From Crocosphaera subtropica ATCC 51142 (GTDB taxonomy: Bacteria > Cyanobacteriota > Cyanobacteriia > Cyanobacteriales > Microcystaceae): DNA of 32,000 nucleotides. A model generated the notes under the pieces. That model did no database searches. It was not told the DNA's origin and saw only the letters and a program-made list of their open reading frames with translations. A program made the translations under genes and the position numbers. The stretch lies in the NCBI RefSeq assembly GCF_000017845.1, contig NC_010546.1, positions 1,950,001 to 1,982,000 of the forward strand, read 5' to 3'. Positions 263-29,320 of this stretch are shown here, piece after piece (positions within the stretch are counted from its first letter, which is position 1; each line of letters begins with the position of its first letter).

Positions 263-287
263 AGTTTAAACTTTAACAATAATCAAT

Positions 288-1490
288 TTAATGAATAGAC
301 TCAAATAATAATTTCAGTTTTTGTGCTTCTTGGGTGACATTATGGTTTTCTTTTACCAGTTTAATGCCAATTTTACCCATATTTTTTAATTCAGAAATAG
401 GAGTATCTAAAACAGTTTTCATGGTGCTAACTAAGGCTTCAACGGAACCAGCAGGAACCAACCAACCTGATTCTCCAGGAATAACTAATTCAGGAATTCC
501 AGCAATATAAGTGCTAATAACAGGACGACCTAAGGCCAGACTTTCCATAATAACAACCGGTAAACCTTCAGCAAAACTAGGTAACACCATAACTTGTGAT
601 TGTAAGATATATTTTTGGACTTGTGCTTGAGTTGCCCATCCTGTAATCTCTACTGTATCCTCTAAATTGAAACGGTTTATCGATTCTTCAATCGGTTGTC
701 TTAATTCTCCATCACCCACTAAAATTAATTTGAAATCATAGCCTTCACCAACTAACTTACTAGCTGCTTCTATTAATAAATATTGACCTTTTTGTTCACT
801 TAAACGACCCAGAGAAACAAAACAGGGTTTTTCAGGCATAGGTTGATAAGAAAAAGATAAAAAAGCATCATCAACCCCGCAATGAACAATTTTTATTTTA
901 TCCCAGTCTTTAAACTCACACCAGCGATAAAGTTGACTTTTTCCATAGGAACTAATGGCAACCACAAAAGCAGCCCTTTTTATTTTTTCAGGTAAAGCGA
1001 TCGCCTCAACTTTATCAAACTCCTCTGGTCCATGAACCGTAAAACTATAGGATACACCGCTTAACACATTATTGAGTAACAAAACGGTGGTAGAATTAGT
1101 TCCAAAATGAGCATGAAAATGGCTAATTTCTAAATAAGAAAATCGCTCTACTAAAACACAAGCTTCTGCTAAATAGGCTAAATTCAATATTAATCCTCTA
1201 TCAGAATTTAAACCTATTTTAATCGTTAATTGTAATGCTTCTAACCAACGCTTGGGTCGAGTGATAGCTACTTTGAGAAAACTAATTAATAAACCAATAA
1301 TTCCTACATCTAAAATGATATTAGTTTTGGCTAATTCCTCTTTATCAGCCTTATCAATTAATGGTTCTTGACAAGCACGGATTGAAAATCGTGTAATCGG
1401 AACTCCTAGTGCTTCTAACGCTAGGATCTCTCGCCGAATGAAACTATGACTAATTTTTGGATACTGATTAATTAAATAGGCAATTTTCAT
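288..1490 (-). CDS. Family 4 (GT-B) glycosyltransferase, WcaL/EPS-type
   Basis: 400-aa ATG ORF. The C-terminal half carries the GT4 E-x7-E signature EGLPVVIMESLALGRPVISTYIAGIPELV. Forms an operon-like pair with the downstream GT2 gene. Confidence 0.85.
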   Translation of the reverse strand: MKIAYLINQYPKISHSFIRREILALEALGVPITRFSIRACQEPLIDKADKEELAKTNIILDVGIIGLLISFLKVAITRPKRWLEALQLTIKIGLNSDRGLILNLAYLAEACVLVERFSYLEISHFHAHFGTNSTTVLLLNNVLSGVSYSFTVHGPEEFDKVEAIALPEKIKRAAFVVAISSYGKSQLYRWCEFKDWDKIKIVHCGVDDAFLSFSYQPMPEKPCFVSLGRLSEQKGQYLLIEAASKLVGEGYDFKLILVGDGELRQPIEESINRFNLEDTVEITGWATQAQVQKYILQSQVMVLPSFAEGLPVVIMESLALGRPVISTYIAGIPELVIPGESGWLVPAGSVEALVSTMKTVLDTPISELKNMGKIGIKLVKENHNVTQEAQKLKLLFESIH

Positions 1491-1710
1491 CTTATTTTTT
1501 CCTAAGATTTAGCCTGATGATGGGACTACATATATACAATACATGAAAACTTCTTCTATTTAACTAAATAAGTATTTATGCTGAAATGAGTCAACTGATT
1601 TATGTTAACTGTCCACTTTTAATTTATAATAGAAGGTATAGGTTATGGGTAAAAAATCTGTGCGTCTACAGCCCAAATCCTAAACAAGCATTATCTTAAT
1701 AACATAGTCG

Positions 1711-2790
1711 ATGAACCATCACCCCGAAGAAACATCACCACAGCTTTCTGAAGAACAAGCTCAAGAATTAATGCGATCGCTTCTCCACAAAGAAGGAACC
1801 TGGGTAGACTGGGGAAAAACCTGTCAACAGCTACAAAAAGCAGGCTATAACAGTCAAACCCTCTTTGAAAAAACTGGGTTTCAAGCCAGTCAACAAAATT
1901 TAATTATCGTGGCTGCTCAAGTGTACGAGAGTTTAGTGAATACTGAAGTGTCCGAAGACTTGTTAAGTTACTATCGTGGACCGAAAAGTGATGTTCTCTA
2001 CGAACTACGGATCTTAAACCAAACTCAACGAGCGATCGTCGCACAATTAGCTAAAGATAAAACTTTAGACGCAATAGAAACAAAAGAGGTAGCTAAAACC
2101 TTTCAAACCTTCTCTTTAATGCCTCAACTGCCTCCAGGGTTTACCCTTCATCCTGGAGACGCAATGGCTTATCAAGCTTGGAAACAAGCAAAGCAAAAAA
2201 AAGACCTTCAAGCGCGCACTCGTTTGATCGCTAAAGGATTAAAATATGCTTTTTCCAACACCGCCAGAGAAGCCATTGAAAAATTGCTCAGTGATTTTAC
2301 TGTAACGCCTGAACGCAGCGCACCTTTAATGCCCCTCTATCGAGTTCAAAACCAAGAAGAGATATCCCGTATCGTTCCCTTGGCTGGAACCCTTCCCTTG
2401 AGCAAAAATGAGGTGTTAGGAGTCAAAAAATTAGACATCGTTAGCCCCTTTAACTCTGTTACTCACCATAACACAGGGTCAGTGGTTCCCCTACCGAGTT
2501 GGCAAGCTGTCTTAACTGCAGTTGATCCAGTAGCTATTTTATGTCAAAGCGATCGCCTACCTCAGTCTTTAACAGGGAAACCAGAGGAAGTTTTAGTCTT
2601 AATTGATCGTAGTCAAACGAACTGGGACGATCAGAGTTATTTCTTGGTCGAAGAAGCAGAAGAATTAACCTTTAAATGGTTTGCTGAACAACCGTCTACT
2701 CCCTTATTAGGTAAAGTTATTATTGTTTTAAGACCTAAAAAGATTTTTGATGAAAATAATTTGTTAGAACCCTGGCAAATGGATGATTAA
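1711..2790 (+). CDS. raf1: RuBisCO accumulation factor 1 (Raf1)
   Basis: 359-aa ATG ORF. The N-terminal block LSEEQAQELMRSLLHKEGTWVDWGKTCQQLQKAGYNSQTLFEKTGFQASQQNLIIVAAQVYESL and the overall length match my memory of cyanobacterial Raf1. Contains HIP1 sites. Confidence 0.8.
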   Translation: MNHHPEETSPQLSEEQAQELMRSLLHKEGTWVDWGKTCQQLQKAGYNSQTLFEKTGFQASQQNLIIVAAQVYESLVNTEVSEDLLSYYRGPKSDVLYELRILNQTQRAIVAQLAKDKTLDAIETKEVAKTFQTFSLMPQLPPGFTLHPGDAMAYQAWKQAKQKKDLQARTRLIAKGLKYAFSNTAREAIEKLLSDFTVTPERSAPLMPLYRVQNQEEISRIVPLAGTLPLSKNEVLGVKKLDIVSPFNSVTHHNTGSVVPLPSWQAVLTAVDPVAILCQSDRLPQSLTGKPEEVLVLIDRSQTNWDDQSYFLVEEAEELTFKWFAEQPSTPLLGKVIIVLRPKKIFDENNLLEPWQMDD

Positions 2791-2844: not shown

Positions 2845-2858
2845 ATGTGTCGCTGTAC

Positions 2859-2914
2859 AGCAATATATCGGACTCGAACCGATGGCTCCATCACTCGTAA
2901 TGACGGTGCATCTC
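2859..2914 (-). pseudogene. Diverged 3'-half remnant of a tRNA-Thr-like gene (putative distal att repeat)
   Basis: The T-arm core tatcggactCgaaccgatg (2866-2884) matches 8252-8270 of the intact tRNA-Thr at 18/19 positions, in the same orientation. Weaker similarity extends through the anticodon arm, the D-stem 3' side and the acceptor 3' strand (agcaatat vs agccacgt). There is no D-arm and no canonical 7-bp acceptor stem, so it is not a functional tRNA. Confidence 0.55.
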
Positions 2915-3439
2915 GACCCCCTAAATCGCTGTAACTCCCATCATATATACATCACAAACCTGAACTCATGATAACTTCGACTTTATTACATAGATAGCTG
3001 AAAAGCAAAATATTAACCTCAATTTATTTCTCTCTTTTTTTATTTTAATTAGAAAAGATTCTCAATACTAGGTTTTGATAATTTGAAGAAAATGTATCAT
3101 TTCTATACAAAATAGGGTTGAAGAAAATAAAATAGCTATCGTTTAAAATTATAATTTCATTAATTTAATTTTTAGCTAAAAATGATTTGTTATTTTTTGA
3201 TTTTTGAAGGGGATGAATTTGATTAAAATTATTTTTATTTGAGTTTTGATGAAAGAAATTAAAGATATAGATATAGGGTATGTCCTTTTCCAAGGTAATT
3301 TAAAGATCGAATGTATTGTACAGATAATTCAGTGATCTTGAAAGAAAAGCATTTGTTAATTTCGGTACACAACTTGGGAATACTCACTTTAACAGCATAA
3401 AAATTAACCACTATCCCCAATTTGGAAAATTGAGCTAGT

Positions 3440-5851
3440 ATGTTTGAATTAATTAATGGTAATGCTCAAAAGTTAGACTATTCTTTTTTATTACTGACTC
3501 ATTTAATGTGTGCAGATCAACAGATACATAATAAGGAGTGGCAGTATTTAAAACAAGTTGAAAATACACTGATGGTAAGCGTATTTACTAAGGAAGAACA
3601 AGATAAGATAATCACACAAGATGAAACTATGTTATCTGTTGAAACGGTTGCTCAAAAAATAGCCAAAACTGAATACGATTCCTTGATTAAACAATTAGTA
3701 CAATTTGCTCACATTGATGATTTTTATGCACCGTCAGAACGTAAAATGATTGAGACTATTAGAAAAATGTGGGGGTTAAGTCAGAGACAAGTTAAATATT
3801 TGGAGTTGAATCAGTCATTGCAAAAGATGACTCCATTAGCCCCTATAAAACACAGTAAGAAAAAAATCAATTTAGGAGATGATTATACAAAGGCACTTAA
3901 ACAATGTGCTAAAGTTGCAAACCAAGATTTTTCTTTAACTAAAAAATACTTAAAAGAGACAAAAATTATTCTTGAAGTATTAGAGAAAACAATTATCAGA
4001 CAACTTGATTATCATAAAAATCATAATAGTCAATTTAAAAATGAAACTTACAAAGATATCCTTAAACAATTAGAAGCAACTCAACAGTCATTAAATACGG
4101 AAATTAACAAACAAATCGATCAAGCTATTGATTCTCTCCATGCAAAAGAACGTTCTCTTAAATATTTTACTATTGCTTTTATGGGAAGAACTAAAGCAGG
4201 TAAAAGTACACTCCATGCAGTCATGACGGGAGAAGGTTGGGAAGCAATAGGTGTAGGAAAACAACGCACTACTCGTTTAAATCGTGTTTATGAATTGTCA
4301 GATATTCGGATTATTGATACTCCTGGAATTGGTGCGCCTGGTGGAAAAAGTGATGAAGAAATTGCTCAAAGTGTTATTGATGAAGCTGATGTTATTTGTT
4401 ATGTAGTCACTAATGATAGTATTCAAGAAACAGAGTTTGAGTTTCTAAAACAATTAAAAGAAAAATCAAAACCCTTAATTGTTTTACTCAATCTCAAAGA
4501 TAATGTAAAGGATAGTCGGCGGTTACAACGTTTTCTAAAAAATCCTGACAAATTGTTTAAAAAAGAAGGTAACGATGGTATAGCAGGTCATATTTCCAGA
4601 ATTCGACGCTATGCTAAAGAGCATTATAGTAACGACTATTTTCCTATTATTCCTGTGATGTTATTAGCCGCACAAATATCTAAAGAAATTGAAGATAAAC
4701 AGCAAGCAGAACAACTTTTCAAAGCCAGTCGAATAGATGACTTTTTTACAGCTATTCGTGAATCAATTATAGATTATGGAAGTATTAGGCGATCGCAAAC
4801 TTTATTAGGTTCAACGGTTGGTAATATTGAACAACCCAATCAATGGATTAAAAAAGAATTAGAAAGTTATCAAAACCTAACTAATACTTTAAAAGATCAA
4901 TCTGTAAACGTCCAAAAAAATATTAAACAAGCTCAAAAAGATTCAAGATTATTATTGAAGCAAAGAATTGATGAAACCTTTGAAACAGCAATTCAAACAA
5001 TTCCTTCCTTTGCAGAAGATTATTGGAATGCTGATGCAGATACACTACAACGAGAATGGGCAAGAAAGATGAATCAGATTAAGTTGGATAAGCGAGTTGA
5101 AAACAGTTATAAAGAAGCTGGTCAACAATTTAACGAAGTTGTTAAAGATATCTTGGATGAAGTTGAACAAGAATTAATATTAATGTCTAACTTAAATGGT
5201 CATAAGTTTAAGTTTTCTCAACAAGATTCTAATGATTTTTGGAGAATGGCGTTAAAATTCGGAGGAGGTTTATTAGCAGTTGGAGCAGGATTAGTAGCAT
5301 TATTTTTCCCACCATTTGCTGTTATTTTAGGAGGGGTTGCTTTTGGAGGAGGTATTTTAAATGCCTTGGGTGGTTTTATGAAATCAAAATCTGAAAAACG
5401 AAAAAAAGCAGTTAATAATATTTCTGATAATTTAAGAAGTCAACTTAAAGAACAACAAGAAGAGACTGTTGAAAAAATGTGTAATGAGTTTGATACTAAT
5501 TGTCTTAAACTTAAGCAGACAATCAATACTTATTTTAAAAATTATTTTGAAATTTTTAAGGAGCTTTATGAGTGTTTTATCCTAAGAAATAAAGATTTAT
5601 TTGAAAATTGTGATTCTTTAAATTGTGCTTATTCTAAACGAATAATTGATTATTCTCGTCAAAAGTATGAACCGTTAACTGAAAATAATATCAATAAAAT
5701 TATTGTGAAGGTTGATAGAAAATTTGGTGACGAAATAAAAATTCAAACTCAACACTTTTTAAATTTAAAAGTCAACCAATCTCAACTGGAACAAATTTTA
5801 CAAGAAAAGATTTCTATCATTGATTTACAAGGAAAGTCTTTACTCAAATAA
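3440..5851 (+). CDS. TerB-like N-terminal domain / dynamin-like P-loop GTPase with coiled coils and a Gly-rich transmembrane hairpin
   Basis: 803-aa ATG ORF. Residues 1-115 hold two AD/DD-x(6-7)-E helical repeats (CADQQIHNKEWQYL; HIDDFYAPSERKMIETI), which I infer to be TerB-like. GTPase motifs: G1 GRTKAGKST (4184-4210), G3 DTPG (4316-4327), G4-like NLKD (4490-4501). Long K/E/Q-rich helical regions follow. Hydrophobic hairpin GGGLLAVGAGLVALFFPPFAVILGGVAFGGGILNALGG lies at 5261-5374. Confidence 0.85.
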   Translation: MFELINGNAQKLDYSFLLLTHLMCADQQIHNKEWQYLKQVENTLMVSVFTKEEQDKIITQDETMLSVETVAQKIAKTEYDSLIKQLVQFAHIDDFYAPSERKMIETIRKMWGLSQRQVKYLELNQSLQKMTPLAPIKHSKKKINLGDDYTKALKQCAKVANQDFSLTKKYLKETKIILEVLEKTIIRQLDYHKNHNSQFKNETYKDILKQLEATQQSLNTEINKQIDQAIDSLHAKERSLKYFTIAFMGRTKAGKSTLHAVMTGEGWEAIGVGKQRTTRLNRVYELSDIRIIDTPGIGAPGGKSDEEIAQSVIDEADVICYVVTNDSIQETEFEFLKQLKEKSKPLIVLLNLKDNVKDSRRLQRFLKNPDKLFKKEGNDGIAGHISRIRRYAKEHYSNDYFPIIPVMLLAAQISKEIEDKQQAEQLFKASRIDDFFTAIRESIIDYGSIRRSQTLLGSTVGNIEQPNQWIKKELESYQNLTNTLKDQSVNVQKNIKQAQKDSRLLLKQRIDETFETAIQTIPSFAEDYWNADADTLQREWARKMNQIKLDKRVENSYKEAGQQFNEVVKDILDEVEQELILMSNLNGHKFKFSQQDSNDFWRMALKFGGGLLAVGAGLVALFFPPFAVILGGVAFGGGILNALGGFMKSKSEKRKKAVNNISDNLRSQLKEQQEETVEKMCNEFDTNCLKLKQTINTYFKNYFEIFKELYECFILRNKDLFENCDSLNCAYSKRIIDYSRQKYEPLTENNINKIIVKVDRKFGDEIKIQTQHFLNLKVNQSQLEQILQEKISIIDLQGKSLLK

Positions 5852-5952
5852 ACAATGAGACAGATAAAGTTTGTATCTCAAGTTAAATTCCATTAAAGTT
5901 TTTTCCAAAACCAAATCACTCACCATCTTATTCACTTATCGAGGATAATCAC

Positions 5953-7674
5953 ATGACTACTTTTAAAGCTGCTGCGATCGCTAATCTTTTTGAAACAACA
6001 ATCACTAAATTTCGTGAGTTACTAGACACCACTAACCAACTAGAAATTAAACAAAAATTAGATAAAGAATTAGAACAACATCAAGAACAAACTTTTTTAA
6101 CCGTTGCATTTGTCGGACAATATAGCGCAGGAAAATCAACTATCATTTCTGCATTGACAGGAAAAAGAGATATTAAAATTGATGCAGATATCGCTACTGA
6201 TAAAACCACATCTTATGATTGGAATGGAATTAAAGTCATTGATACTCCTGGACTTTTTACAGATCGAAAAGATCACGACCAAATTACTTATGATGCTATT
6301 CATAAAGCAGACTTACTCATTTTTTCTCTCACTTATATGTTGTTTGATTCTATTACAGTTGAGAACTTTAAAAAGTTAGCTTATGATCAAGGATATGATT
6401 GGAAAATGATGTTAGTGATTAATAAAATGTCAAACGAAGCAGGAGAAGAAGCAGAAAAAATAAATAACTATCGTCACAGTTTAGCAGAAGCAATTAACCC
6501 CCATTATCTTAATGATTTTCCTGTGTGTTTTATTGATGCCAAAGATTATTGTGAAGGAATAGATGAAGAGGATGATTTTCTTTTAGAAATGAGTCGGTTT
6601 CCTACTTTTATTGATGAATTAAATAACTTTGTACAAGCTAAAGGTTCTCTTGCTCGTTTTGATACTCCTGTAAGAATTTCTCTGAGTTATATTGATGAAG
6701 TACAATTACAATTAATGCGAGACTCAGATGAAGATGCAGCTTTTTTCCATATTCTCAATCAATTATCTCGTAAAGTTCGGAAAGAACGTAATAAGTTACG
6801 TAATGAAGTACAAAGTATTATCCTCAGATTAACATCAGTAATTTGTACTGAAGGTAATAACTTAGCAGCAGCAGTAGGAGATAAAAATTTTGAAACTCTC
6901 AATAAACAAGCAGAATTAAATGTTCAGAAATATTATGAAAAAGCAGAAAATGAACTACAAGAGCTATTTGAATCTGCTGTTGAAGAAATTAGAGATGAAG
7001 TAAGAAAGGTTTTTGAATCTAATTTTGCTCAAACTTTTTTTACTTATCTTGAAAATAATTTTTCGTTTCATCAAAAACATCCTGACGACGGAATTAATAT
7101 TGAACAATTGAAAAATCAATTCAATGGACTCAAAAATATTGCAGAAACCGTAGGATTAGAAATAGGAAAATTAGCAACTCGAAACTTTATGAAAATTCCC
7201 AGTAAACCAGGATTTTTAAAAGGTATAGATGTGATAGGAGGCGACGTTCATAAAGGAGTTTTGCAGGTGGGAAAAGTTGTCGGATTTAAGTTTAAACCTT
7301 GGCAAGCGGTTCGTTTTGCTAAAAATATTGGTAATGCTGCTAAATTTCTTGGGCCAGTTTTAGGGGTTGTTGCATTAGGAATTGATGTCTTAGACGAAAA
7401 ACAAGAAATGAAAAGAGAAAAACAAATGTCTGATTGTCGTCGTGAAATTAATAGTACATTTCAATCTGTTGCTAAAGACTTAGAAAATCAAATACACATT
7501 CAACTCAATGATTTTGAAAAACAAGTTTATAATGAAATAGAGCAACAAATTAAGAAAGTGCGTCAACAACAAGAAGATGCTGTTTCTGCTTCTAATATTA
7601 ATGTTCAAAAACTAACAGAGATTCGTAAAGAATTTGAGCTAATTCTAAAAGAAATTAGTGAAACAATTAATTAA
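5953..7674 (+). CDS. Dynamin-family GTPase (LeoA/BDLP-like), paralogous partner of the upstream gene
   Basis: 573-aa ATG ORF with a GAGGA RBS 8 nt upstream. G1 GQYSAGKST (6115-6141), G3 DTPG (6241-6252), G4-like NKMS (6421-6432). The NTPase core aligns by eye with the upstream protein. Helical/coiled-coil stalk, with a Gly-rich hydrophobic segment FLGPVLGVVALGIDVL (7345-7392). Confidence 0.85.
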   Translation: MTTFKAAAIANLFETTITKFRELLDTTNQLEIKQKLDKELEQHQEQTFLTVAFVGQYSAGKSTIISALTGKRDIKIDADIATDKTTSYDWNGIKVIDTPGLFTDRKDHDQITYDAIHKADLLIFSLTYMLFDSITVENFKKLAYDQGYDWKMMLVINKMSNEAGEEAEKINNYRHSLAEAINPHYLNDFPVCFIDAKDYCEGIDEEDDFLLEMSRFPTFIDELNNFVQAKGSLARFDTPVRISLSYIDEVQLQLMRDSDEDAAFFHILNQLSRKVRKERNKLRNEVQSIILRLTSVICTEGNNLAAAVGDKNFETLNKQAELNVQKYYEKAENELQELFESAVEEIRDEVRKVFESNFAQTFFTYLENNFSFHQKHPDDGINIEQLKNQFNGLKNIAETVGLEIGKLATRNFMKIPSKPGFLKGIDVIGGDVHKGVLQVGKVVGFKFKPWQAVRFAKNIGNAAKFLGPVLGVVALGIDVLDEKQEMKREKQMSDCRREINSTFQSVAKDLENQIHIQLNDFEKQVYNEIEQQIKKVRQQQEDAVSASNINVQKLTEIRKEFELILKEISETIN

Positions 7675-7852
7675 ATCTATTTGTCCTAAAAGATGATTGA
7701 AAAAACCAAAAATTAGGGTAGAATTATGATATTTCTTCTCCTGTTTTGACTCTAATGTGGCTAATGTCATGCAAAATCTACTCTATAGAAAAGGTAATGA
7801 TTTTTTAGTCAAATTTTGTCCAAACTGATTTGAGATAATAAGTATTTTAATG

Positions 7853-7882
7853 ACAGCTAAACTTAGATTTAGCTGTTTTTTT
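7853..7882 (+). terminator. Rho-independent terminator closing the two-GTPase operon
   Basis: 9-bp perfect stem acagctaaa / tttagctgt (7853-7861, 7868-7876), 6-nt loop, then tttttt (7877-7882). Confidence 0.7.
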
Positions 7883-8244
7883 GATCTTTAGTATTTTTAA
7901 ATTATTTTTCACTTCTTCAAAAATCCCCTCTCAGATACTTATCGTTCTCTTTAATTTGATCTTTTATAGAAATCACACCTATGTTTCAATCATTTTCTTG
8001 AGACTGAAGAAAAATCTAATATTCATTTTGATGAACTCATCAAGATATTCAAAATCATGTATATCGTTAAAATCTTGAAAATTACTTATTATTTTATTGA
8101 CTTTGTTTAGTAGAAATGCAAATGTTTTATAAAAGTTAAAAAATAGCATTATGACTAGGTTTGAGGGTTATTGGATCTGATGTGTAATTACACTACGAAC
8201 TATACAGATGTGTAATGAGGTGTGTAATTGTTAGGGGTGAAGTA

Positions 8245-8317
8245 AGCCACGTATCGGACTTGAACCGATGACCCCATCATTACGAGTGATGTGCTCTACC
8301 AACTGAGCTAACGTGGC
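8245..8317 (-). tRNA. tRNA-Thr (anticodon CGU)
   Basis: The reverse complement folds as a canonical cloverleaf: GCCACGT TA GCTC AGTTGGTA GAGC A CATCA CTCGTAA TGATG GGGTC ATCGG TTCAAGT CCGAT ACGTGGC T. CCA is not encoded. Confidence 0.95.
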
Positions 8318-8376
8318 CTGGAATCAGGTTACATTCATAATGTATCATATTCTAACAGTGTCAATAAAATTTTTGC

Positions 8377-8646
8377 ATGGAGAAACCACCTAAAAAGTCT
8401 CGTCAGTCTCGTCCTCAACTTGATCCTGAAAAATATGCGTCTTTAAAAGCAGAAGCGGAAGCCCCTTACAAGGGTTTGAGAAAATTTTTTTATATTGCCT
8501 TTGGTGCCTCTGGTTTTATTGGGGCTGTGGTATTTTTAGCTAAATTAGCTGCAGGAAAAGAAGTTGCTTCTACTTTACCGAATTTTGCTTTACAAGTAGG
8601 CGTTGTTGCACTCATGATCTTTTTGTTTCGCTTAGAAAGTAAGTAA
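8377..8646 (+). CDS. Small conserved two-TM membrane protein (possibly DUF3493-like)
   Basis: 89-aa ATG ORF. Basic N-terminus followed by two hydrophobic helices (FFYIAFGASGFIGAVVFLAKLA; FALQVGVVALMIFLF). Host-like composition. Confidence 0.65.
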   Translation: MEKPPKKSRQSRPQLDPEKYASLKAEAEAPYKGLRKFFYIAFGASGFIGAVVFLAKLAAGKEVASTLPNFALQVGVVALMIFLFRLESK

Positions 8647-9825: not shown

Positions 9826-10881
9826 ATGATCAATAAACAGCTTGGAATTATCGGTGCGATCTCTGTCGGGTTTATTACGGGAACTACCTTACCCGCTTAT
9901 ACTGCTAATTTGAACTATTTTTACGATCCCTCTAATAGTGTTGCCAATAATGCGCTGAACTTAACTGATAATATCCTGAATGTCATCAATTATTACGAAG
10001 GACTACAGGGTGATTTTTCGTCAGAAGCAGAAATGATTGTTAGGGATACATTTGTTAATCTCTCGAACTATATGGGAACAGATGGACTTGATAACGCTAT
10101 AGCAGCAGGTTTTCGTCCTTTTACCCCTATATTTAAAGGACACGGCGTTCATTATGTTAAACCATTGAATATTCTTGATCCTGCTAAGGCCACTGAACCT
10201 ATCGGTTTAAATTTTGATGAACACGGAAATTTAGTAGCAGCATTTTATTTTCAGGAACAGCACGTCATCAATGGACCAGGGACAGGTTTCTACAGCACGC
10301 TTGAAGACATTGAACCCAATGAACTTATCACCCACTATCAAAACTTTAAAGAGGATTATAATACCTCTGCGCCAGATATTTTTGACGATTTTGGTAATTT
10401 AGCAGCTTGGCACACTCATAATGATGTAAAAATTGATAATATCGGGTCTTTAGATTCAGAAGAGGTAGTTTTTGGCCAAGATTTATCAGACCAAGAATGG
10501 GTACACGCACTCTTGACTGGACTAGGTGATGATGACATTGATCTTGCTATCTACGAACAAGAACAATCTGATCCCTCTGATCCGTCTCAATACCCTTTTT
10601 ATAATACTCTGATGACTCCTGGCTTTCATATGATTCATATCTGGTTAGGAGCAGAAAATCAGGATGGTTTATTTGCAGGGACTCACGATGATGTTGCACC
10701 GAATGCGGTGGACGAACATGGGGGTCACGGGGGTCATGGTGGACATGGAAATGGCGGTATTCCCTCCGAACCGCAAGACCCTGTCAGTGTTCCTGAACCC
10801 TCTGTTTTAGGGATGTTAGCCACCAGTGGATTGTTGGGTTTGGTATCAGCTTTAAAACGTCGCTTCAACAAAGCTAAATAA
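9826..10881 (+). CDS. Secreted PEP-CTERM-anchored protein with a (HGG)3HG repeat
   Basis: 351-aa ATG ORF. N-terminal signal peptide (IIGAISVGFITGTTLPAYTA). C-terminal VPEPS (10789-10803) + hydrophobic helix + KRRFNKAK is the PEP-CTERM sorting signal. HGGHGGHGGHG lies at 10717-10749. Confidence 0.85.
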   Translation: MINKQLGIIGAISVGFITGTTLPAYTANLNYFYDPSNSVANNALNLTDNILNVINYYEGLQGDFSSEAEMIVRDTFVNLSNYMGTDGLDNAIAAGFRPFTPIFKGHGVHYVKPLNILDPAKATEPIGLNFDEHGNLVAAFYFQEQHVINGPGTGFYSTLEDIEPNELITHYQNFKEDYNTSAPDIFDDFGNLAAWHTHNDVKIDNIGSLDSEEVVFGQDLSDQEWVHALLTGLGDDDIDLAIYEQEQSDPSDPSQYPFYNTLMTPGFHMIHIWLGAENQDGLFAGTHDDVAPNAVDEHGGHGGHGGHGNGGIPSEPQDPVSVPEPSVLGMLATSGLLGLVSALKRRFNKAK

Positions 10882-13475: not shown

Positions 13476-13739
13476 CGTTTGTTAACCTTTATGTATATTA
13501 TGAGTTTTTCTTTACTTTACTTAACTTATCGCAAAACTTCTTCTTAGGGTATATCCCCTAGGGGGGCATACGATTTTATAGTAACGAAATTCTCTAGATC
13601 CGTCAATGCGTAGGGGTTGAACGGTGTTATGACTCTATTACAGTGTTATGCCCTGAGAAAAATTTATAGGGTTATAATATTGTTAAGTTTCTGAGCATAA
13701 TTATTTTAAAGATAAAAATCGTGAAATAAAAATAATAAT

Positions 13740-14330
13740 ATGACCACACAATTAAATCTAGAAACTAACTCGACGGCTGAACAAATTATTGTTTTTCCAG
13801 GCTGCTATCATTGGCAACAGTTTAAAACCATACAATCTATTATTAATGAACAATCAACCGCAAAAATAAGTTAGTTAGATGGACAAATTGAACTGATAAC
13901 AACAGGAGAAGATCATCAAAGAATTAAAACGATATTAGGTTTTTTAATTGAACTTTATTTATGTGAAAAAGAGATTGACTATCTTCCTGTCGGAAGTGCA
14001 ACCCGTGAAGCAGAAATAAAAGGCGCATCTTTTCAACCTGATGAATCTTATTATCTCGATAAAACTAGAAAAAATCCTGATTTAGCGATAGAAGTTATCT
14101 TCACCAGTGGAGGAATTAATAAGTTAGAAAAATATAAACGCTTTGAGGTTACTGAAGTTTGGTTTGGGCAAAATAATCAGTTATCAATTTACTATTTGAA
14201 CAATGGCGAATATAAACAGGTTAATCACAGTATTGTATTACCTGAATTAGATATTAATGTGTTAGTAAAATGCGTTAGTTTGCCTTCTAGACCACAAGCT
14301 AAAAAGATTTTTATGGAAGGGTTAAGATGA
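13740..14330 (+). pseudogene. Uma2-family (DUF820) endonuclease gene interrupted by one in-frame TAG
   Basis: Hand translation from ATG 13740: MTTQLNLETNSTAEQIIVFPGCYHWQQFKTIQSIINEQSTAKIS*LDGQIELITTGEDHQRIKTILGFLIELYL...FQPDESYYL...NPDLAIEVIFTSGGINKLEKYKRFEVTEVWFGQNN...YYLNNGEYKQV...LPELD...*. The stop TAG at 13872-13874 sits where the family has Tyr (ISYLDG). The frame is otherwise intact to TGA 14328-14330. Confidence 0.8.
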
Positions 14331-14341
14331 TTCTTAAATCT

Positions 14342-14650
14342 CTAAGATGAGACTAACTTTCTAACTAATTCTATATCTAATTGTAATAAATTAGCCGTTT
14401 GTTCAATCGTAAATCCTTGTTTAATCAAACTAGGAATTAATTCTAATTTTGCCTCAAGTTTACCCTCTATTTTACCTTCATCACGGGCTTCTTGATAAAA
14501 GCGTGTTTGTTTTAAATCATTTAATCCTAACATTTCTTCGATTTCCTCCCGACTTTTCTCTGGAGACTTATAGATAACAATAGTTTCTATTAAATTAAGA
14601 ACATTTTGGCGAATGGGTTCATCGGTAAGTTCTTCTGTTGCTTGATTCAA
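14342..14650 (-). CDS. Rpn-family (PD-(D/E)XK putative transposase) C-terminal, DUF4351-like fragment; probably a 5'-truncated remnant
   Basis: 102 aa with a TTG start and an in-frame stop only 5 codons upstream (14666-14668). IETIVIYKSPEKSREEIEEMLGLNDLKQTRFYQEARDEGKIEGK is the characteristic C-terminal block of this family. The ~180-aa N-terminal nuclease domain is absent. Confidence 0.5.
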   Translation of the reverse strand: MNQATEELTDEPIRQNVLNLIETIVIYKSPEKSREEIEEMLGLNDLKQTRFYQEARDEGKIEGKLEAKLELIPSLIKQGFTIEQTANLLQLDIELVRKLVSS

Positions 14651-14740
14651 TAATTGTTGACTTTTTTAAAAAATATCGCCTAATTTATTTTGTTTTCATT
14701 ATAATATACTTGTTATTTCAGTATCTGTAAAGATTAAACA

Positions 14741-15160
14741 ATGAAAGATTCTCATAAAATATCACAATCTATCTCTAATGTGGGCTTTATATCAGGAGGA
14801 ATACAGGCAGCAATTGGCGATAATATACAAAATATGACAACTGTATCTGATCAGGAAAATAATACTTTTTCTTCAACAGAGATGATTAAATTATTATCTC
14901 AAATAGAAAAAGTAATTAAAAATACTGATTTTCCTCCCGAAGCAGAAGAAATGAAAAGGAAAATTGAGCATTATGTAACACAATCTAAAATGGAAGCTGA
15001 AATTAAGAATCCTGACAAGCAATTTATTCGTACTAAACTAGAACAAGTATCTACCGACATAGAAAAAGCGAGTAAGACTTTTGATTCTGTTAGCAATTTA
15101 TGGCGAAAAGTTAAGCCACTATGTTTAAAATTATTAGGGTTATTGAGTAACATGGTATAA
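14741..15160 (+). CDS. Orphan helical protein, first gene of a two-gene cassette
   Basis: 139-aa ATG ORF, very AT-rich. N-terminal GGIQAAIGDNIQN (14795-14815 core), then an E/K-rich helical region ending LCLKLLGLL. Confidence 0.55.
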   Translation: MKDSHKISQSISNVGFISGGIQAAIGDNIQNMTTVSDQENNTFSSTEMIKLLSQIEKVIKNTDFPPEAEEMKRKIEHYVTQSKMEAEIKNPDKQFIRTKLEQVSTDIEKASKTFDSVSNLWRKVKPLCLKLLGLLSNMV

Positions 15161-15196
15161 AAAAAGTTTAAGTTTAATTCGTGGAGAAGGTAGAAG

Positions 15197-15883
15197 ATGT
15201 CAAAACCTTTGCATAGTTCACACTTTGGAGATAATCACAAGAATGATTTTGAAATTTGTCAAAATGCAGAAAACTCAGTTATGAATGGAGGGATGCAGTC
15301 TGCTATTAATCACGGAAATGGCTCGATCAATCAAAATCAAATTATTAATTATCAAAATCATAATTCTATTAAATTAGAAAAAGATACGATAAAAAGTTTT
15401 TCTCGAAGTGAAATACATAAGCAAGCTAGTCTAAATTTTTTATTGTATTTTATCTGTGCTATTTGTGTTTTCTTATTTTTTAAAATTTTACCCTTGTTAT
15501 TCGATATTAATAAAATTTACTTTTTTGTTTTGTTTTTGTGCTTTTTTATTTCTTTTAGTATAGTTAAATTCTATCGTTATCCGTATATTTTGATGTTTTT
15601 ACTTCGTAAAATCAATTGTGAACATTATTTAGGACAAGGAATATTTTTATATAAGTCTTCCAATGGCAATTGTATTATATACTGTAAGTCTGCACAATGT
15701 AATTATTCTAGTTGTGAGCAAGGAATTGTTTATTTACAAGATCCGCCCCCTAGAGAAAAAGAAAATCATACATATATCGGGAAATGCAATAAAGGAGGAA
15801 AAGCCCATGTATATAAGGTTTCTGATAATTTCATTGGTATTCCTCATACTCAAGGATTTGATTGGCGTAAACTTAATGAATAA
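15197..15883 (+). CDS. Orphan membrane protein with N/Q/H-rich N-terminus, two TM helices and a C-terminal Cys cluster
   Basis: 228-aa ATG ORF with a GGAGAAGG RBS upstream. N-terminal GGMQSAI (15287-15307). TM helices at about residues 78-103 and 107-126. C159-x3-C-x4-C-x4-C173 (15671-15715), plus C141 and C197. Confidence 0.55.
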   Translation: MSKPLHSSHFGDNHKNDFEICQNAENSVMNGGMQSAINHGNGSINQNQIINYQNHNSIKLEKDTIKSFSRSEIHKQASLNFLLYFICAICVFLFFKILPLLFDINKIYFFVLFLCFFISFSIVKFYRYPYILMFLLRKINCEHYLGQGIFLYKSSNGNCIIYCKSAQCNYSSCEQGIVYLQDPPPREKENHTYIGKCNKGGKAHVYKVSDNFIGIPHTQGFDWRKLNE

Positions 15884-15922
15884 TTTTTGTCTTCAAAAAA
15901 TTTGCTAAATAGTCTAACTTCT

Positions 15923-27954: not shown

Positions 27955-28150
27955 TATACAGATTTTGACACTCCCACGGGGTTCTACCCGTGGGATTCTT
28001 GCTTCACAGACCCTTATCTAGCCAATCAAAGATTGACCCCGACAGTATGTCTCCACAAGCATTTTCATTCACGGACTGCCCGACCGCCACTAGACCACGA
28101 TTTCTTATTATTTGGCCAGCTGCAACGTCCCTATTTGTTTGATACCCACA
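27955..28150 (-). ncRNA. Putative TnpB guide RNA (omega/reRNA) scaffold region; boundaries approximate
   Basis: Established: TnpB guide RNAs derive from the 3' end of tnpB plus the right element end. Seen: an 8-bp perfect hairpin cccacggg gttcta cccgtggg (27973-27994), 10 nt downstream of the tnpB stop. No covariance model was run. Confidence 0.35.
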
Positions 28151-29320
28151 ATAAGGACAACAATGGAGTCTATCTGATAGACTTTTTTTACCTGTATGAG
28201 TATTACAATTAGGACAAATTTGGCTGGTATAGTCTTTATCTACCTTAAGAAAATAGACATCTCTTTTCCAGCAAACATACGCCAAAATATTGAAGAACTG
28301 ACCAAAACCAGCATCTAATGTATGCTTACCAAACAAGCCTTTAGCCCAAGCTTTTAAGTTAATATCTTCTACAAATATCATGCCAGCTTGATCACACAAA
28401 TGATGAGCTAATTTAAAATGCCAGTCTTTTCTAGTATCGTGGATCTTTTGATGAACTCTAGCTATTTTAGACTGAAGTTTTTGCCAATTATTAGACCCCT
28501 TTTTCTTGTTCTTTAACCTTCTTTGCAGTGATTTCAACTGGCCATGAAGTTGATTAAAAAACCGAGGTCTTTTGACTAATTCCCCATCTGAAGTAGCTAA
28601 GTATGAATCAAGTCCGATATCTACCCCTAGAGGATGTCCATGTATCGGGGTTTCAGGGATGTTGACCGCTAACTGATAACTTAGCTGTACAAAATACCCT
28701 GATGCCCGTTTAACTACCCTAATTTGTTTGATAAGAAACCCATCAGGAATAGGTCTAGACATTCTCATTTTTACCTCCCCAATTTTGGGAAGTTTTACCC
28801 AACCACTGCCTACCCATTCTTGCTTAACTGATGGGTAGAGAAAACTTCTCATTTTCTTCTTATAGCGTGGAAAACCAAAACCCCTTTCCCACATATTGAC
28901 AAACGCAGCCTCCAAAGTTCTTAGAGTCTGTTGCAACACTTGAGAGTGAGGTTCCTTTAATTCAGAGTAGCTTTTCTTGGCTTCTGTTAAAGATTTACAT
29001 TGAGAATTGTAGGTAGGTTTAGGAGCATTTGGATTAATTATGTATTCAGAATGAATTGAACAAGCATTGATAGGCGACTTACGACTGTTCACCCAATCCT
29101 TCCTTTCTCGAAGTGCGTAGTTATAAATTTTTTTGCACGTTTCAAGATATGTCTCAATTTTTTGAACTTGAGATTTTTTAGGCTTGAGTTTAAAGTCGTA
29201 AGTCATCGTTATCATGCCCTCGTTATAACATAGTTAATAAACGGTTTTCAATTTATTAACTATGTCTTCACTCCGACTAAAATCGAGGGGCTGTGTGGCG
29301 AATCGCATTCGCCACCCTGT
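27960..29320 (-). mobile_element. IS200/IS605-family element carrying tnpB only (no tnpA); ends approximate
   Basis: The tnpB ORF is flanked by perfect hairpins. On the right-end side: 27973-27994. On the left-end side: gtggcgaat cgc attcgccac (29295-29315), plus a 13-bp inverted repeat catagttaataaa/tttattaactatg (29229-29241 / 29252-29264). No Y1 transposase ORF is nearby. Exact termini cannot be set from a single copy. Confidence 0.7.
28004..29215 (-). CDS. tnpB: TnpB (IS605 OrfB family RNA-guided endonuclease)
   Basis: 403 aa. N-terminal YDFKLKPKKSQ...; RuvC-I LGVDIGLDSYLATSDG, RuvC-II IFVEDINLKAW, Zn-ribbon CPNC...CPYC, RuvC-III NRDVAAGQII. The catalytic residues appear intact. Confidence 0.95.
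   Translation of the reverse strand: MITMTYDFKLKPKKSQVQKIETYLETCKKIYNYALRERKDWVNSRKSPINACSIHSEYIINPNAPKPTYNSQCKSLTEAKKSYSELKEPHSQVLQQTLRTLEAAFVNMWERGFGFPRYKKKMRSFLYPSVKQEWVGSGWVKLPKIGEVKMRMSRPIPDGFLIKQIRVVKRASGYFVQLSYQLAVNIPETPIHGHPLGVDIGLDSYLATSDGELVKRPRFFNQLHGQLKSLQRRLKNKKKGSNNWQKLQSKIARVHQKIHDTRKDWHFKLAHHLCDQAGMIFVEDINLKAWAKGLFGKHTLDAGFGQFFNILAYVCWKRDVYFLKVDKDYTSQICPNCNTHTGKKSLSDRLHCCPYCGYQTNRDVAAGQIIRNRGLVAVGQSVNENACGDILSGSIFDWLDKGL

Follow-up and report, generated by a model that had tools for sequence, protein, structure and literature searches.

Integrase-less elements that keep functional attachment (att) sites and can be mobilised in trans are known as cis-mobilizable elements (CIMEs), which Pavlovic and colleagues reportedly treated in 2004, and Coleman and colleagues are said to have described in 2006 the tRNA-flanked islands of marine picocyanobacteria. 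The signature of islands in tRNA genes (tDNAs) has been set out in the Islander criteria, which are an intact tRNA or tmRNA gene at one end, a cognate 3' fragment downstream of it in the same orientation that is no part of a full-length tRNA gene, a length of 2-200 kb, and a tyrosine-recombinase integrase gene inside the island (PMC4383910). Eleos, for which the name 'Dynamins' is also used (10.1101/2022.12.12.520048), is a defence operon of two genes, leoBC and leoA, whose function has been shown by experiment; it is homologous to LeoABC of enterotoxigenic Escherichia coli (ETEC), usually lies in defence islands and occurs in ~1% of genomes, cyanobacteria included (10.1101/2022.05.11.491447, Millman et al. 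2022). Here we describe a 5.4-kb islet of Crocosphaera subtropica ATCC 51142 (51142) that lies between raf1 and a tRNA-Thr(CGT) gene and holds two genes for dynamin-like GTPases. It was analysed within a 32,000-nucleotide stretch of contig NC_010546.1 (the window; all coordinates are positions in it). The segment 2866-8292 is, with a probability that we put at about 0.7, the integrase-less remnant of an island that integrated into tRNA-Thr(CGT), with an Eleos operon kept inside (Table 1).

The islet resembles Islander-type islands with a class A attP in having an intact tDNA, a cognate 3' fragment in the same orientation and a duplication that starts at the anticodon stem, and it is likewise of foreign composition with accessory cargo (PMC4383910). 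The intact gene stands at 8245-8317, the fragment at 2866-2910 on the same strand is no part of a full-length tRNA gene, and the distance between them is ~5.4 kb. The islet differs from such islands in that no tyrosine-recombinase integrase gene is found inside, which excludes it by the Islander integrase filter, and in that its fragment is damaged, with the acceptor strand gone and the anticodon hairpin inverted, and mobility is not expected. As in CIMEs, att-like repeats surround cargo that has no recombination module; in contrast to them, the distal core is inverted and truncated, which makes mobilisation in trans unlikely. The islands of marine picocyanobacteria likewise have a cyanobacterial tRNA 3' end as a recurrent hotspot. 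This is a tRNA-integrated defence islet of a known type, of which only the hairpin inversion and the shuffling of T-arms described below are mildly unusual, and its description can help annotation and work on defence islands in cyanobacteria, the concept being already known.

Table 1. Coordinates of the features in and around the islet (positions in the window).
Feature	Position	Strand	Basis
GT4 glycosyltransferase gene	288-1490	-	Pfam
raf1 (Rubisco accumulation factor 1), left flanking core gene	1711-2790	+	Pfam; locus comparison
Native tRNA-Thr 3'-flank motif TGTACAGCGACACAT, directly after the fragment	2845-2859	-	15/16 to the SU3 flank; also in L071
Decayed tRNA-Thr 3' fragment, attR-like: anticodon arm, variable loop and T-arm, acceptor 3' strand apparently deleted	2866-2910	-	Repeat, fold and flank comparisons
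Fragment's anticodon hairpin, the reverse complement of that in the tRNA (loop TTACGAG vs CTCGTAA)	2889-2906		16/17 inverted vs 11/17 direct
Left AT-rich non-coding spacer, GC ~0.25	2911-3439		Six-frame Pfam/PHROG; 509 bp counted from 2931
leoBC, 803 aa, dynamin-like GTPase, ~150-aa N-terminal extension	3440-5851	+	PADLOC LeoBC PDLC03841, E 8.1e-115, profile 6-595/601; Pfam
leoA, 573 aa, dynamin-like GTPase with DLP_helical domain	5953-7674	+	PADLOC LeoA PDLC03839, E 1.9e-130, profile 6-558/559; Pfam
Right AT-rich non-coding spacer, GC 0.268	7675-8243		570 bp to 8244; no counterpart in L072
Terminator-like hairpin and T-run downstream of leoA	7852-7877	+	Hairpin and T-run
attL-like identity segment, anticodon-stem 5' strand to tRNA 3' end, 49 nt	8244-8292	-	98% identical over 49 nt to the partial copy in L069
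tRNA-Thr(CGT), intact, putative regenerated target gene	8245-8317	-	Rfam RF00005, 69.8 bits; ARAGORN
Promoter-like site TTGACA-16-CATTAT just upstream of tRNA-Thr	8337-8364	-	Kept in relatives (TATGAT region), flank alignment
DUF3493/LPA1-like gene, right flanking core gene	8377-8646	+	Pfam; linkage to tRNA-Thr(CGT) kept across Crocosphaera

The original prediction, made from the sequence alone, placed an intact tRNA-Thr at one end of the islet and a diverged copy of its 3' half at the other. The intact gene is recognised by both programs listed in Table 1, and recomputing the T-arm match gave the identical count, 18 of 19 positions between 2866-2884 and 8252-8270, in the same orientation. Over the longer core TGATGG..CCGATA the agreement is 25/28, and a scan of the window and of shuffled sequence with the 28-mer TGATGGGGTCATCGGTTCAAGTCCGATA, allowing up to 3 mismatches, found only 8252-8279 and 2866-2893, with 0 matches expected in the shuffles. 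The same pair was returned by a repeat finder as direct pair D4, 35 nt at 83% and oriented as the tRNA. The similarity does continue into the anticodon arm, as had been claimed, yet the anticodon hairpin is inverted, which was also recovered independently as an inverted repeat pair (I9, 94%). The claimed continuation into the acceptor 3' strand did not stand: the 4/7 agreement there is probably not homology, and comparison with the tRNA flanks of the sister genome SU3 and of the metagenome contig L071 indicates that this strand was deleted.

ARAGORN calls a tRNA-Arg(ACG) at 2858-2930, drawn as a cloverleaf with 6/7 pairs in the acceptor stem plus anticodon stem and T-arm, and the segment folds stably (z -3.6). 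These results could be read as a real, unusual tRNA-Arg(ACG), or a decayed full-length paralog, whose resemblance to tRNA-Thr is that of tRNA families in general. The Infernal/Rfam check that had been proposed recognised no tRNA: the Rfam model RF00005, run on 241 nt around the copy, gave no match even at E<=10. Together with a degenerate D-arm and a minimum free energy fold that is rod-like and not a cloverleaf, this ruled out the segment as a tRNA gene. Moreover, its anticodon stem and T-arm are near-identical to those of tRNA-Thr(CGT) specifically, and its loop sequence is exactly that of the tRNA-Thr loop reverse-complemented, the 'anticodon' reading ACG, the complement of CGT, because the hairpin is reverse-complemented. 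The 6/7 'acceptor stem' is flank sequence that pairs by chance, since its 3' strand aligns with the flanks of L071 and SU3, an alignment which indicates that the fragment has lost its acceptor 3' strand. We therefore regard a tRNA-Arg gene or paralog as exceedingly improbable, and flagging the ARAGORN call as a pseudo-tRNA scar is useful for annotation.

The fragment is directly followed by sequence that belongs to tRNA-Thr genes elsewhere. The next 16 nt (TGTACAGCGACACATT) agree at 15/16 with the 3' flank of tRNA-Thr in SU3 and also match the flank in L071 (TGTACAGTGACATAT), while none of 282 control intergenic 75-mers reached that score against the SU3 flank. The shorter motif TGTACAGYGACAYAT is unique within the window and, in a search set of 78 loci (~1 Mb of related DNA), was found only 12-18 nt 3' of tRNA-Thr(CGT) in SU3 and L071, in the same orientation, and beside the 51142 fragment, with ~0.007 chance occurrences expected in the searched loci. 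The fragment therefore still lies on a native tRNA-Thr flank, as a displaced 3' end should.

On the tRNA side, the homology of the window with the sister genomes CCY0110, BG0011 and SU3 (loci L059-L063) stops exactly at 8244, one base past the tRNA. The linkage of tRNA-Thr(CGT) with the DUF3493 gene is kept in these three, in a Crocosphaera metagenome-assembled genome (MAG), in XPORK-15E and in PCC 7424. The ancestral 3' neighbours of the tRNA, a 135/158-aa gene and a 422-aa aldehyde-dehydrogenase-like gene (in CCY0110, BG0011 and the MAG), are replaced in 51142. The tRNA itself agrees over 54 nt with those of CCY0110, BG0011, SU3 and the MAG, and the 9 nt at which it differs from them all lie 3' of the anticodon; the differences are four compensated T-stem pairs (GCGAG/CTCGC vs ATCGG/CCGAT in 51142) and one base of the variable loop.

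A metagenome scan with the 28-mer common to the tRNA and the fragment returned four contigs. On L068, the tRNA-Thr(CGT) is intact, its T-arm is of the ATCGG type, and its flank is homologous to that of CCY0110 and BG0011. Of that tRNA, L069 retains only the 3' 49 nt, beginning with the 5' strand of the anticodon stem; they run into the flank seen in L068, and two overlapping Phage_integrase open reading frames (ORFs; E 6e-9 and 4e-10) precede them. A live integrase-bearing element is thus present at the same position of this tRNA in a related population, and L068 and L069 make a textbook pair of empty site and attR-type junction, centred on the anticodon, for a tyrosine-integrase element other than that of the islet. 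The L069 duplication and the similarity in the window fragment have the same left limit to within 2-3 nt. The tRNAs of the other two contigs, L070 and L071, are 73/73 identical to that of 51142, and their 3' flanks differ from each other. In L071, the tRNA is directly followed by the flank motif and is linked to a DUF3493 gene (85% identity at the amino acid level), with only 134 nt of flank on the contig; this arrangement is presumably the site when unoccupied.

Several smaller observations concern these flanks and the integrase. The string TATCTTAAGTTAAAT stands twice in tandem (18-nt period) at 2814-2846 on the plus strand, between the raf1 stop codon and the flank motif (repeat pair D5), and a third copy (14/15) lies at 5874-5888 in the spacer between leoBC and leoA; ATCTTAAG(T)T strings like it are found in the tRNA-Thr 3' flanks of L068, L070, CCY0110 and BG0011. 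A run of GAACTCC heptamer repeats occupies L071 1-70 (reverse strand), ~70 nt downstream of tRNA-Thr. The L069 integrase (268-1920, minus strand) is split into overlapping fragments of 331 and 170 aa, in which ~100 residues occur twice as a result of partial tandem duplication. It has only two relatives in a database of 5.8 billion proteins, at 59% and 48%; the 48% relative is encoded on L074, a phage-like contig of 26.9 kb with a DNA polymerase A, Bro-N/KilA-N domains and a G+C content (GC) of 0.31.

We propose that a tyrosine integrase, probably of the L069 type, acted by site-specific recombination at an anticodon-centred att site in the tRNA-Thr(CGT) of the 51142 lineage, on an element whose attP contained ~49 nt from the 3' end of a tRNA-Thr(CGT). 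Integration would have regenerated the working tRNA at 8245-8317 and displaced the original 3' part, together with the native flank downstream of it, by 5.4 kb (2845-2910). The integrase and other genes of the element would later have been deleted, leaving the two spacers and leoBC-leoA, and the fragment would have decayed, acquiring three substitutions, losing its acceptor strand and having its anticodon hairpin inverted; this order of events is the one that we infer. With its fragment truncated and the hairpin inverted, the islet should no longer be able to excise. The idea of an old or decayed integrative element thus gains support, as far as integration is concerned, from the flank motif, L071, the L068/L069 pair, the breakpoint at 8244 and a cargo that is a defence system missing from the sister species and has cyanobacterial relatives, and the position of the Eleos operon suggests that it arrived with that element.

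The composition of the islet agrees with a foreign origin, and bears out the hand count of the original prediction. Between 2791 and 8244 the GC is 0.298, against 0.384 in the rest of the window, the two GTPase genes have the lowest GC at third codon positions (GC3) in the window (0.185 and 0.159 vs mostly 0.27-0.41), and the dinucleotide-signature distance peaks at 3001-8000 (101 vs 30-60 elsewhere). Spacers of about 0.5 kb that are AT-rich and gene-free do flank the gene pair (509 and 570 bp): both hold short stop-free stretches only and gave no Pfam or PHROG match in six frames. Compared with L072, the contig with the closest homologs of the gene pair, they are unique sequence, except for the last ~90 bp before leoBC (3354-3439), which are kept there and are likely the promoter or 5' untranslated region of the operon. 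The absence of an integrase or recombinase in any frame was corroborated by Pfam on all ORFs, Pfam and PHROGs on the six-frame translated spacers and tblastn with the L069 integrase, and the search of the spacers for recombinase remnants that had been suggested found none by the same three approaches. The HIP1 sites at 4789 and 5974 are both present, and the former is kept in the L072 homolog, which supports their reading as a hint of a cyanobacterial donor.

By their PADLOC profile matches, the two GTPases are LeoBC and LeoA, the components of Eleos. As in that system, the two genes are adjacent (101 bp apart, same strand) in an island-like location, match the profiles over nearly their full length, and have intact motifs (P-loop GRTKAGKS and DTPG in LeoBC, P-loop GQYSAGKS and DTPG in LeoA). 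They differ from it in two respects. The 51142 LeoA scores 120.8 bits with the NCBIfam LeoA subfamily model, below its cut-off of 325, and LeoBC has an additional N-terminal region (residues 1-150; 3440-3890) outside the PADLOC profile, with a weak TerB match (E 0.002). Among the cyanobacterial homologs listed, the majority have a precomputed TerB domain (PF05099), which suggests a cyanobacterial TerB-LeoBC variant of Eleos. The Eleos of B. vietnamensis, the only one assayed, protects B. subtilis from the jumbo phages AR9 and PBS1 and requires its P-loops (10.1101/2022.05.11.491447); by analogy, leoBC-leoA may act against phages in 51142 as well. In this way, two GTPase genes that counted as 'unknown' in this model diazotrophic cyanobacterium obtain an identity, an Eleos operon, and a probable origin, a tRNA-Thr-targeted island that should now be immobile.

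The family is widespread in cyanobacteria, with ~1900 LeoBC/LeoA homologs, and a homolog lies on a Pseudanabaena plasmid. The best non-self match of LeoBC is 62% identical (L072), followed by at most 48% in filamentous cyanobacteria, and no homolog of the pair exceeds 62% outside the strain. Since the protein database includes the proteins of the sister genomes, the pair is strain-specific accessory DNA of cyanobacterial ancestry, and it is absent from the sister Crocosphaera and not, as would be expected of a resident locus, present here in all relatives. The two genes also form an adjacent module in L072 (76-82% at the nucleotide level) and in L073, a Xenococcaceae MAG, where the pair lies in an ordinary chromosomal context and is likewise AT-richer than its neighbours. 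This last point, the wide distribution of the family and the HIP1 sites would suit a pair that was ancestral to Crocosphaera and lost in the sisters, its AT-richness being a family trait and the tRNA-like sequence incidental. Such a history would require several independent losses, as CCY0110, BG0011, SU3 and the L065/L066 lineage have other genes 3' of tRNA-Thr. The 62% of the best LeoBC match also contrasts with the 85-95% identity of core proteins among the Crocosphaera genomes, and the significant tRNA fragment and its flank motif are left unexplained. We consider an ancestral pair highly improbable.

A number of results weigh against a simple island history. The AT-richness of the L073 pair indicates that the low GC3 is partly intrinsic to the gene family, the flank-motif homology spans only ~16 nt, and the islet has no recombinase of its own. 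No tRNA-Thr attP was found on the contigs with relatives of the L069 integrase (L074-L078), and no match was obtained for the att core or LeoA in viral contigs, nor for the islet in phage genomes. The closest relative of the cargo, L072, is a 4.6-kb contig without context, too short to be used as a source of element context. On the left side, the identity of raf1 is confirmed by Pfam, and the empty site that had been predicted, raf1 beside tRNA-Thr, was found in none of ~10 Crocosphaera relatives. Across 51 raf1 loci, which include these genomes, the stop codon of raf1 (2790/2791) is the exact point beyond which there is no nucleotide homology, and the downstream sequence differs in each genome; tRNA-Thr, the GTPases and DUF3493 lie within 10 kb of raf1 in no relative. 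A search for an empty site from this side revealed nothing in common downstream of the stop codon. The lack of a raf1/tRNA-Thr empty site is explained by the raf1 3' end being a separate synteny breakpoint, and, as raf1 is adjacent to tRNA-Thr in no genome, the left junction involves an extra rearrangement.

The T-arm adds a further complication. The fragment carries the 51142-type T-arm, and the sister type is found nowhere in the window, which rules out a one-step model, by which the fragment should bear the sister-type T-arm. A single integration into a sister-type tRNA can therefore not explain all the data; the sequences imply at least two recombination events at this tRNA, and either an earlier T-arm replacement or a tandem array that was later reduced has to be assumed. 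T-arms and flanks occur in all four pairings: the GCGAG type is joined to a CCY0110-type flank or to the motif flank (SU3), and the ATCGG type likewise to a CCY0110-type flank (L068) or to the motif flank (L071 and the fragment). Such a four-gamete pattern indicates repeated recombination between T-arm and flank, the outcome that would be expected from island integration followed by imprecise loss, and indicates that the resident tRNA was already of the ATCGG type when the last integration displaced its 3' end. The DUF3493 gene was tried for polarising T-arm evolution, and its identities (0.83-0.87) are too close to tell if 51142 and L071 are sisters. These comparisons show the tRNA-Thr(CGT) 3' end of Crocosphaera to be a recurrent hotspot of integration and rearrangement that leaves chimeric T-arms.

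These complications also bear on the possibility that two unrelated histories meet here, the fragment being the scar of an older island or rearrangement, and the Eleos operon having entered the gap on its own, perhaps through homologous or illegitimate recombination following transformation, or with a different element. At least two events at the tRNA are required in any case, the 3' ends of the tRNA and of raf1 are both breakpoints in many lineages, no integrase or element gene ties the cargo to the att-like repeats, and only the genes and ~90 bp upstream, not the spacers, are common to L072. Against this, the operon in its entirety, and no other gene, is found between the regenerated tRNA and the displaced fragment, all of the 5.4 kb including the spacers deviates uniformly in composition, and defence operons are typical island cargo. 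We consider separate histories rather unlikely, though they are the main alternative, and retain the island remnant as the explanation of both the repeats and the cargo.

The anticodon hairpin is the crossover (overlap) region of an anticodon-centred att site. Its flip on a once-functional attR, by integrase action on a near-palindromic core or by hairpin template switching, could have reversed the polarity of the site and locked the island. In parallel, element traffic appears to shuffle T-arms among the tRNA-Thr genes of Crocosphaera, as both T-arm types are found with either flank type. We offer this combined proposal tentatively and hold it to be improbable as a whole; if true, the hairpin flip would be a specific route to the domestication of a defence islet, and the integration and loss of islands would drive the evolution of chimeric tRNA genes.

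The raf1 3' flank is strongly rearranged across the genus. In XPORK-15E, a tRNA-Ser(CGA) lies 700 bp downstream of raf1 (L010 11784-11869), and in the MAG locus L005, secA and a tRNA-Ser(TGA; 14073-14158) are 5.5-8.5 kb from raf1, compared with 18-21 kb in the window. Beyond the DUF3493 gene, the window continues with core genes that include those for ClpB, SecA, tRNA-Ser and MetRS. A second low-GC patch (13476-15900; GC 0.28-0.31, GC3 ~0.20) between the DUF3120 gene and clpB holds a 102-aa ORF that corresponds to the C-terminal end of DUF2887 only, a gene fragment, and two ORFs without Pfam match; it may be another accessory or decayed insert. At 9826-10881 (plus strand), a gene for a PEP-CTERM-motif protein stands between a 127/155-aa ORF and a 125-aa ORF; these two are adjacent in the Crocosphaera MAG loci L065/L066, and the PEP-CTERM gene is therefore an indel relative to that lineage. 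Finally, 28004-29215 (minus strand) encodes a 403-aa protein of the TnpB/OrfB_IS605 family (OrfB_IS605, Cas12f1-like TNB and HTH_OrfB_IS605 domains) with no adjacent TnpA, and relatives with 27-34% identity are found on L071 and L016/L050.

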